Positions 53,149-54,035 of a stretch of DNA of 64,000 bases are shown piece by piece; position 1 is the stretch's first letter; each line of letters starts with the position of its first letter. The stretch is from NCBI GenBank assembly GCA_963849325.1, contig CAWKHF010000006.1, positions 256,001 through 320,000 of the forward strand. The letters are read 5' to 3'. The notes under the pieces were generated by a model. The model was not told the origin of the DNA, searched no databases, and was given only the letters and a program-made list of their open reading frames with translations. This DNA is from an uncultured Planctomycetota bacterium (GTDB lineage: Bacteria; Planctomycetota; Planctomycetia; Gemmatales; Gemmataceae). Made by a program: the position numbers and the translations under genes.

Positions 53149-53610
53149 TCATTTGGCGAGTTTTAGGGTCATGGCTTGGTCGTTCACTTCCAATGACGCT
53201 ATCTGAACTTCTATCTCAGAACCTTCGGGCAAGTGCCTGGTTTGGTCGTTGAGTGGAAGCTCACCAACACAGTCGTTTCCAACATCGACGGTAACACCGT
53301 TTTGGTGAACCATCTTGACTTTGCCACGCAGTACCGTGCCTGGTGGATTTCGAGACAATGCTCGATAAGGGTTTCCTTCCGGGTCAAGATGCTTCAATGA
53401 GCCGGTGTAAGTGTTCTTCTCGTAGTTCAACCGTTCAATCATAACCCTGAGCGTTTGACCAACAGAGAGGTTGGCAAGCATGGTCGGAGTAGGAATCCAT
53501 GCGACATTGTTCAATGGAACGAAAATACTATCATTACCGTAGGCGAGAAAAATGCCGAACGGTTCGACCCGCATGATCATCGCTTCAACAATTGCACCGA
53601 TTTCGAGCAT
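53149..53610 (-). CDS. tandem S1-domain protein, putative immunity protein
   Basis: GAIVEAMIMRVEPFGIFL..LSVGQTLRVMI..SLK and GTVLRGKVK..GVTVDV..GSEIEVQI. Confidence 0.7.
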   Translation of the reverse strand: MLEIGAIVEAMIMRVEPFGIFLAYGNDSIFVPLNNVAWIPTPTMLANLSVGQTLRVMIERLNYEKNTYTGSLKHLDPEGNPYRALSRNPPGTVLRGKVKMVHQNGVTVDVGNDCVGELPLNDQTRHLPEGSEIEVQIASLEVNDQAMTLKLAK

Positions 53611-53639
53611 GTCACAACCTCACAGTGTAGAGTGGCCTA

Positions 53640-54035
53640 TTACGGATGGTATCGGTTTCCGGTAGCCCCAGCTTCGATGGCCTTATTGAACTCATCAAGA
53701 CGGCCAGGGCTGACTTTCCAGGATCGACCAGCTTCATAGTATCCATCGACTTCGATAACCCCTCTATGGACCAACTCATCGAACGTACTTCGAGGGATGT
53801 TGATCTCTTGAAGGCCATTCTTGTAGGATGCCTGGAATCCTTCGGCGATTGATTTGTCAGTTGACAGAAACACCCCATCTCCTGAGTATTGCTTCGGATC
53901 GAACCCGCTTTTGACTTCATTAGCAACCCCCGCTCTTCCTTGCTGGGGAGCTTTCCAAAGGGTGACTGTTTCGCTCGACTCGGGAACGCCAACAACCTTG
54001 GCTCGTGGGATACCGGCTTGTGGAGCAACCCACAC
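53640..54035 (-). CDS. orphan toxin tip, possibly ADP-ribosyltransferase-like
   Basis: TLWKA, GVFLSTDKSIAEGF, late YYE; sits between two immunity-type genes. Confidence 0.5.
   Translation of the reverse strand: MWVAPQAGIPRAKVVGVPESSETVTLWKAPQQGRAGVANEVKSGFDPKQYSGDGVFLSTDKSIAEGFQASYKNGLQEINIPRSTFDELVHRGVIEVDGYYEAGRSWKVSPGRLDEFNKAIEAGATGNRYHP

Follow-up and report, generated by a model that had tools for sequence, protein, structure and literature searches.

We analysed a 64,000-nucleotide stretch of contig CAWKHF010000006.1 from an uncultured Planctomycetota bacterium, hereafter the window, and focused on two adjacent genes on its reverse strand. The upstream open reading frame (ORF) encodes 131 amino acids (aa), starts with GTG, and contains the motifs TLWKA, GVFLSTDKSIA and YYE. 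The downstream ORF starts with ATG, 29 nucleotides (nt) further on, and encodes a protein with two S1 domains, designated S1x2. The guanine-plus-cytosine (GC) content is 0.49-0.50 over positions 53250-53999, compared with 0.65-0.71 in most of the flanking DNA. A preliminary description of this DNA had reported a low-GC 131-aa ORF directly before a two-S1 protein, and our coordinates, GC values and Pfam S1 match all agreed with it. As set out below, the pair probably comprises an orphan toxin module with an ADP-ribosyltransferase (ART) fold and S1x2 as its cognate immunity protein. The positions of these and the neighbouring features are collected in Table 1.

The two genes differ in their start regions. 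The sole possible start of the 131-aa ORF is the GTG, which lies one codon past an in-frame TGA and 12 nt past the stop of a preceding 127-aa ORF, without a Shine-Dalgarno-like motif. The S1x2 gene has a GAGG 8 nt ahead of its ATG and is a called gene (P0001) in the protein collection. Contigs from four sequencing runs span only 53269-53638 or 54083-54500, and none of them bridges the locus.

The homologues of the 131-aa ORF were sought by a full HMMER search of 1.84 billion protein representatives. The search returned 73 homologues at E ≤ 1e-3, of which 44 were at E ≤ 1e-10 and 4 at E ≤ 1e-30, indicating that the 131-aa ORF is not a chance ORF. One of the 73, P0068, was rejected as a low-complexity repeat-protein false positive. 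The match ended no more than 25 residues from the C-terminus in 69 of the 73 homologues. Among the homologues of at least 300 aa, whose lengths reach 3718 aa, the domain formed the very C-terminal end in 22 of 23. A Pfam scan of 16 long homologues found RHS-type domains in nine, PT-HINT in five, and nothing in two. The family thus has the placement of a polymorphic-toxin tip, at the extreme C-terminus of delivery or pre-toxin proteins, and the window copy has no carrier. The preliminary description had called the ORF an orphan tip, and the position of the homologous domains, at the C-terminus of proteins of the RHS or PT-HINT type, bears this out.

A common linker, …APxxG.PRAKV.GVPESS…, with carrier sequence before it, is present in the four nearest homologues (67-74% identity) and in the fragment P0055. 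The start of the window ORF coincides exactly with this linker, of which the ORF retains about 20 aa (VAPQAGIPRAKVVGVPESSE) without a carrier domain. Since the ORF starts at the linker and its homologues continue into carriers, it appears to be a complete toxin module without a carrier, that is, a 5'-truncated orphan tip. The source annotation of the homologues is "hypothetical protein". No Pfam (E ≤ 1), NCBIfam, PADLOC or PHROGs model matched the 131-aa ORF, the sole line being a chance-level excisionase (E 0.15). A PDB sequence search with the toxin alignment returned just an intein-like domain, aligned to the HINT columns, and no relatives of the pair were found on viral contigs.

The fold of the toxin module was examined with an AlphaFold2 model based on a 37-sequence alignment. 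The model had a predicted local distance difference test score (pLDDT) of 94.0 and a predicted template modelling score (pTM) of 0.85, and it displays the split beta-sheet of the ART fold. It was compared exhaustively with 48,161 PDB representatives, and 50 matches were listed. The top match was the RhsP2 C-terminal toxin (Z 8.5, root-mean-square deviation 3.1 Å over 105 residues, 13% identity), and the next matches were diphtheria toxin (Z 6.4) and KptA/Tpt1 (Z 5.8-6.3). Judged by title, at least 40 of these 50 were ARTs, PARPs, Tpt1/KptA or RES/MbcT proteins; a repeat run agreed. The best Foldseek match was KptA (E 2.8e-3, prob 0.97), the top match among the viral models of BFVD was a mycobacteriophage ADP-ribosyltransferase (E 6.7e-4), and the ESM Atlas feature match was the Tox-ART-HYD1 cluster (0.91). 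The ART fold proposed in the preliminary description was therefore upheld by the structure checks, with a model of pLDDT 94, RhsP2 at the top and mostly ART matches. On the basis of this model, the toxin module is predicted to have an ART-like fold and to form a separate clade without an existing model.

The conservation of individual residues was assessed in the 37 aligned sequences. An aromatic residue at position 56, Y71 and G74 were present in all 37, and [KR]28, which closes the first strand of the model, was present in 36. Further conservation was seen at Q76 (32), E77 (28), D97 (35, plus one E) and N117 (35), making D97 the most conserved acidic residue of the family. The window copy keeps every one of these eight positions. 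A catalytic set of the form [KR]-[YF]-…-D/E is plausible from this pattern.

The partner protein was clearly related to ribosomal protein bS1. S1x2 matched the Pfam S1 family (PF00575) in two stretches, with an E value of 1.8e-14 and 54.3 bits against a cut-off of 22. It also aligned to parts of the NCBIfam rpsA models, far below the full-length cut-offs. With TIGR00717 the score was 44 bits against a cut-off of 577, covering about two of the six domains, so S1x2 does not qualify as a bS1 equivalog. The relatives of S1x2 form a small family of 153-174 aa with 39-73% identity. The profile of this family matched bS1 residues 192-302 with an E value of 2e-31, compared with 1e-5 or worse for the S1 domains of PNPase, and the alignment spanned two consecutive bS1 domains, inter-domain linker motif included. 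The AlphaFold model of S1x2 (pLDDT 94.2) consists of two five-stranded barrels, and its best structure match was 7A05, the nuclear magnetic resonance structure of bS1 D3-D4 (E 3e-12, template modelling score 0.64). The identity of S1x2 to the bS1-sized gene of its own genome was just 26%. A metagenome scan with S1x2 returned two short contigs; L014 begins 27 nt before the S1 gene.

The pairing of the two genes was then followed across genomes. A pattern search for the toxin module, covering one genome per GTDB species, returned seven loci, and in all seven the next ORF on the same strand was S1-like. The partner had two S1 domains in five of these loci and a single domain of 74-77 aa in the other two, where it stands behind one RHS and one PT-HINT toxin. 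Pfam S1 scored above threshold in six of the seven. In a further locus, G429, the order is toxin and S1x2, then a toxin fragment and a second S1x2. With the window and G429 included, 9 of 9 readable loci have an S1-type ORF immediately after the toxin module, and these loci represent at least five carrier types: RHS, PT-HINT, a 401-aa protein, free-standing toxins of 112-116 aa, and the orphan of the window. The preliminary description had placed the S1 protein in the immunity position, and this co-occurrence supports that placement.

We also determined how often each gene occurs in whole genomes. The toxin was searched with a domain-only alignment that excluded the PT-HINT columns, and S1x2 was accepted at E ≤ 1e-28 in a phylum sample of 401 genomes and at E ≤ 1e-41 in a sample of 251 genomes from the family of the Gemmataceae metagenome-assembled genome G403. 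In the phylum sample, one genome had the toxin and one had S1x2, and this was the same genome, that of the window. In the family sample, five genomes had the toxin and six had S1x2, including all five toxin genomes; the next S1x2 score below the threshold was 3e-24, from bS1-sized frames. Over the 652 sampled genomes, the two occurred together in six, S1x2 occurred alone in one, and the toxin never occurred alone. In these genomes, S1x2 was confined to places next to the toxin module and to sites with a decayed or missing module. A downstream gene that varies with the tip, as expected of polymorphic-toxin immunity, was thus found in 9 of 9 loci and in the co-variation over the sampled genomes. 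A mirror-tree comparison of toxin and S1 identities in seven pairs gave a Pearson r of 0.53 and a Spearman coefficient of 0.38 (p 0.09), values that are too weak and too non-independent to use.

In the Gemmataceae, the pair is inserted at a site that is flanked by a LarE-like PP-loop ATPase gene on one side and by a conserved gene of about 88 aa on the other. Intact free-standing toxins (112-116 aa) are found at this LarE-adjacent site in L009, L010 and G429. The toxin is truncated to 87 aa in L011, is frameshifted in L012, and is a 39-aa fragment in the second copy of G429, and S1x2 stands without a toxin in L013 and L060. All eight S1x2 copies at the site are intact. In the window's own genome the site is empty, with neither gene. 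That S1x2 outlives the toxin is expected of an immunity or antitoxin gene and not of a targeting subunit.

Two side observations concern the same site. Across L009-L013, L053, L060 and L015, the LarE-adjacent gap is an insertion hot spot that is either empty, occupied by S1x2 only, or occupied by toxin and S1x2, once in duplicate. In addition, L011 is labelled "uncultured Alcaligenaceae bacterium" and falls in the genome family of G403, with which it shares its synteny; the organism label may be wrong.

We propose the following explanation for the pair. The toxin module would have been cut off exactly at the linker, leaving an orphan without a delivery domain or a proper start. S1x2 would derive from the mRNA-binding, D3-D4-like part of bS1 and is very probably the antidote of the toxin. 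S1x2 would be produced by the toxin-making cell, or by any other cell that has retained it, and would neutralise the toxin, most likely by binding it directly through the first S1 domain. This first domain would be sufficient because single-S1 partners exist. The toxin itself would take ADP-ribose from nicotinamide adenine dinucleotide (NAD+) and attach it to some component of the translation apparatus or of RNA metabolism. The window copy of the tip is probably silent or decaying, and the S1 gene beside it would still protect against neighbours that deliver the same toxin.

Several results weigh against this explanation. Foldseek gave no PDB match at E ≤ 0.001, the Z score of 8.5 for RhsP2 is barely above the background of 7-8 stated for the comparison tool, and ART Pfam models matched 0 of 19 toxin family members even at E ≤ 10. 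No invariant Glu occupies the usual catalytic position in the 37 sequences. E77 is limited to 28 of them, and E101, the glutamate of YYE that the preliminary description had implied to be catalytic, is present in just three; this part of that description did not hold. The window copy is substituted at three conserved positions: P51S and P109S, at each of which 32 of the 37 sequences have P, and H107K, at which 22 have H. K107 and S109 were found in the window copy alone, and S51 in one other sequence. The window toxin may therefore be inactive; the substitutions would fit drift in an unexpressed copy, which is not proof of it. The 131-aa ORF also has neither an ATG nor a ribosome-binding site and is absent from the called genes of the protein collection. 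As for the pairing, the 77-aa ORF downstream of the toxin in L008 has no Pfam S1 match, and the family sample was picked because it contained the toxin. The five Gemmataceae loci are syntenic kin that are not independent of each other and represent about one evolutionary event. Finally, the mutual binding of the two proteins, the toxicity of the tip and its use of NAD+ are predictions.

Within the reading as toxin and immunity protein, the nature of the target and of the protection may be explained in different ways. The preliminary description had suggested a decoy or an RNA shield, with translation or RNA as the target, and we treat these as hypotheses. A refinement that is compatible with it, and that we offer tentatively, is target-mimic immunity. 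The toxin would ADP-ribosylate an S1 domain of bS1 or of a further S1-domain protein, for example RNase E or PNPase, the modification would block translation initiation or RNA turnover, and S1x2 would act as a bS1-derived decoy in the substrate site. S1x2 is far nearer to the tandem domains of bS1 than to other S1 proteins and has kept the bS1 inter-domain linker motif. In addition, the toxin family is mostly acidic, with an isoelectric point (pI) of 4.1-5.9 in 15 of 19 members, which suits a protein substrate better than RNA. The phage T4 ART ModB, which selects S1 domains, provides a precedent (PMC10468400). In an alignment by eye, the beta3-beta4 loop had no Arg in the S1x2 clade of the window and several Arg in the Gemmataceae versions. 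However, the identity of S1x2 to the bS1-like gene of its own genome is just 26%, immunity proteins are usually unrelated to the target, and the OB fold may have been taken up as no more than a scaffold for binding. The stricter form of this idea is a little more doubtful: that the immunity protein has evolved from a copy of the toxin's target, as a non-modifiable bS1 D3-D4 mimic that would trap an ART attacking S1 domains. It is unlikely, in our view, that the tip is an RhsP2-like RNA toxin that ADP-ribosylates the 2'-OH of structured RNAs, with S1x2 binding these RNAs or competing for the RNA surface of the toxin. This alternative draws on the best structural match, RhsP2, an RNA-modifying toxin with an R-Y-E triad (PMC12340436), and on the KptA/Tpt1 RNA 2'-phosphotransferases, which come next among the fold matches. 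A comparable [KR]...[YF] pair in the toxin family and a partner from an RNA-binding domain family also fit it. The acidity of the toxin family, which favours a protein substrate over RNA, speaks against an RhsP2-like mode of RNA binding, and it is unlikely that immunity would work by shielding abundant RNAs stoichiometrically. Moreover, compared with bS1 by eye, the first S1 domain lacks the His, Asp and Arg at what we take to be the canonical RNA-contact positions.

Two further alternatives are less likely. An ART-fold toxin that degrades NAD+, of the RES, MbcT or TNT-like type, would kill by NAD+ depletion, and S1x2 would then be a mere plug. RES toxins, MbcT and VPA0770 were indeed among the fold matches (Z 4.0-5.4), a TNT cluster appeared in the ESM Atlas list (0.84), and the toxin family has no invariant catalytic Glu. 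Because those Z scores lie well below that of RhsP2, nothing specific ties the toxin family to NADases, and the bS1-like nature of the partner is left unexplained, we regard this alternative as improbable. The last alternative is a housekeeping pair, in which an ART-like protein would modify S1x2 to tune its RNA-binding function. In keeping with such a role, free-standing 112-116-aa versions stand together with S1x2 beside a LarE-like gene in the Gemmataceae, where the chromosomal site is conserved. Yet the pair is present in just 5-6 of the 251 family genomes, neither gene occupies the site in the window's own genome, the module also occurs as a fusion with RHS and PT-HINT delivery domains, and the toxin copies decay while S1x2 stays intact. 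These points make a housekeeping function very improbable, and we retain the reading of an orphan toxin module with its immunity protein.

The pair is surrounded by further ORFs. On the reverse strand, with falling coordinates, the order is a giant protein in pieces, the 127-aa ORF, the 131-aa ORF, S1x2, a 662-aa ORF and a 119-aa ORF. A segment of 897 base pairs at 92% identity is common to the 662-aa ORF (52129-53024) and the resident giant toxin gene (55376-56271), and past this segment the C-terminus of the 662-aa ORF is different. From its sequence and layout, the locus appears to be a polymorphic-toxin array with displaced orphan cassettes. The carrier region of the homologue P0014 had just one 24-residue motif in common with the 662-aa orphan (E 1e-4).

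Table 1. Features of the toxin array in the window, with the toxin-S1x2 pair listed first.
Feature	Position	Strand	Basis
Orphan C-terminal toxin module, 131 aa, predicted ART fold	53640..54035	-	ORF list, homologues, AlphaFold model
Tandem S1-domain protein S1x2, 153 aa, bS1 D3-D4-like, proposed immunity protein	53149..53610	-	Pfam, profile, model
Resident giant repeat-rich toxin gene, 3' part (975-aa ORF), with a different C-terminal tip	54445..57372	-	
Presumed immunity gene of the resident tip, 127-aa ORF	54048..54431	-	Position only; no family match
Second orphan cassette, 662-aa ORF, with yet another tip	51144..53132	-	
Presumed immunity gene of the 662-aa orphan, 119-aa ORF	50775..51134	-	Position only
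82-nt repeat at the 5' edge of the orphan cassettes	53043..53124	.	Repeat comparison

The resident giant gene consists of three overlapping ORFs in different frames on the reverse strand (57697-62463, encoding 1588 aa; 57287-57838; and 54445-57372, encoding 975 aa), all within its region of 138/276/414-nt repeats. This split within repeats suggests frameshifts or assembly errors. Just before the resident tip, at 54828-54944 (reverse strand), a linker is encoded by four to five tandem 24-nt units that give AEAKTL(A/T)Q repeats. The tips of the resident toxin (54448-54900, reverse strand) and of the 662-aa orphan (51147-51650, reverse strand) had no significant Pfam match, the sole line for the two being LytR_C (E 0.055) in the resident tip. 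The 127-aa and 119-aa ORFs had no match in Pfam, NCBIfam, PADLOC or PHROGs. The resident tip with the 127-aa ORF, and the 662-aa tip with the 119-aa ORF, are presumed to be two further uncharacterised toxin-immunity pairs.

Further copies of the 82-nt repeat were found at 50629-50710 and 62950-63031 and on another contig (G000 contig C4:441942-442023), with identities of 73-95%. One copy sits upstream of the resident toxin gene. The repeat may serve for recombination or may be part of a conserved 5' region. Beside the toxin locus, a 68-aa ORF on the forward strand (62606-62812) had a weak match, below the gathering score, to the C-terminal end of the integrase core domain rve_3 (E 6e-4), and it is probably what remains of a transposase.

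Polymorphic toxins rank among the main sources of novel enzymatic activities and of novel means to inhibit them. The pair adds a clade of ART-fold toxins that goes undetected by the Pfam, NCBIfam, PADLOC and PHROGs models, and a probable immunity protein built from the S1 domains of a ribosomal protein. No pair of an ART toxin and an S1-domain immunity protein was found in full-text searches of the open-access literature; one recurring open-access paper mentions S1 domains, in an unrelated context. A survey of polymorphic toxins from 2012 covers Tox-ART-HYD1/2, ART-RSE and other toxins together with the immunity families of each, and its first 300,000 characters contain no mention of S1 domains or OB folds (PMC3482391). 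S1x2 would accordingly represent a kind of antidote to an ART toxin, very probably one, for which we found no earlier description. Since the partner is clearly bS1-like, it leads to a testable target hypothesis, namely S1-domain proteins or their RNAs. If the stricter target-mimic idea is true, it would amount to target-mimicry immunity in interbacterial warfare, a bacterial counterpart of the attack of T4 ModB on S1. The free two-gene form of the module offers a simple test construct.

The closest known system by structure is RhsP2/RhsI2 of Pseudomonas aeruginosa (PDB 7RT7), in which an ART-fold Rhs C-terminal domain of about 140 aa is likewise followed by an immunity gene. The basic residue in beta-1 and the later aromatic residue of the window family are comparable with the R-Y-E triad described for RhsP2, which modifies RNA through a basic RNA-binding face (PMC12340436). 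The two differ in that the 13% identity comes without a sequence-level match and that the window family is acidic and has no invariant Glu. Tox-ART-HYD1 (PF15633), paired with Imm-My6CBD, is an ART-fold tip carried by RHS or HINT proteins; its signature is H, [RK], [FY], [DE] (PMC3482391). The window family resembles it in the conserved [KR], [YF] and D and in the Atlas match of 0.91. Unlike Tox-ART-HYD1, it has no conserved His before [KR], its 19 members are not matched by the Pfam model at E ≤ 10, and its partner is an S1 protein, not Imm-My6CBD.

According to PMC10468400, T4 ModB recognises rS1, PNPase and RNase E through their S1 domains, in which it modifies Arg of the beta3-beta4 loop. 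It resembles the pair, by analogy only, in the interaction of an ART with S1 domains, but it is a phage enzyme without an S1-type inhibitor gene. S1x2 shares with bS1 D3-D4 the tandem S1 domains and the same linker, but it has 153 aa compared with about 480-590 aa, lacks the ribosome-binding D1-D2 as well as D5-D6, and is encoded by low-GC DNA. The free-standing toxin of the Gemmataceae with its downstream neutraliser is similar to the ART-type toxin-antitoxin pairs ParT/ParS, DarT/DarG, RES/Xre and MbcT/MbcA, and ParT, DarT, RES and MbcT were all among the fold matches of the toxin model. In contrast to these pairs, the toxin gene comes first here, and the neutraliser is a tandem S1-domain protein instead of a DNA-binding antitoxin, a macrodomain or a hydrolase.

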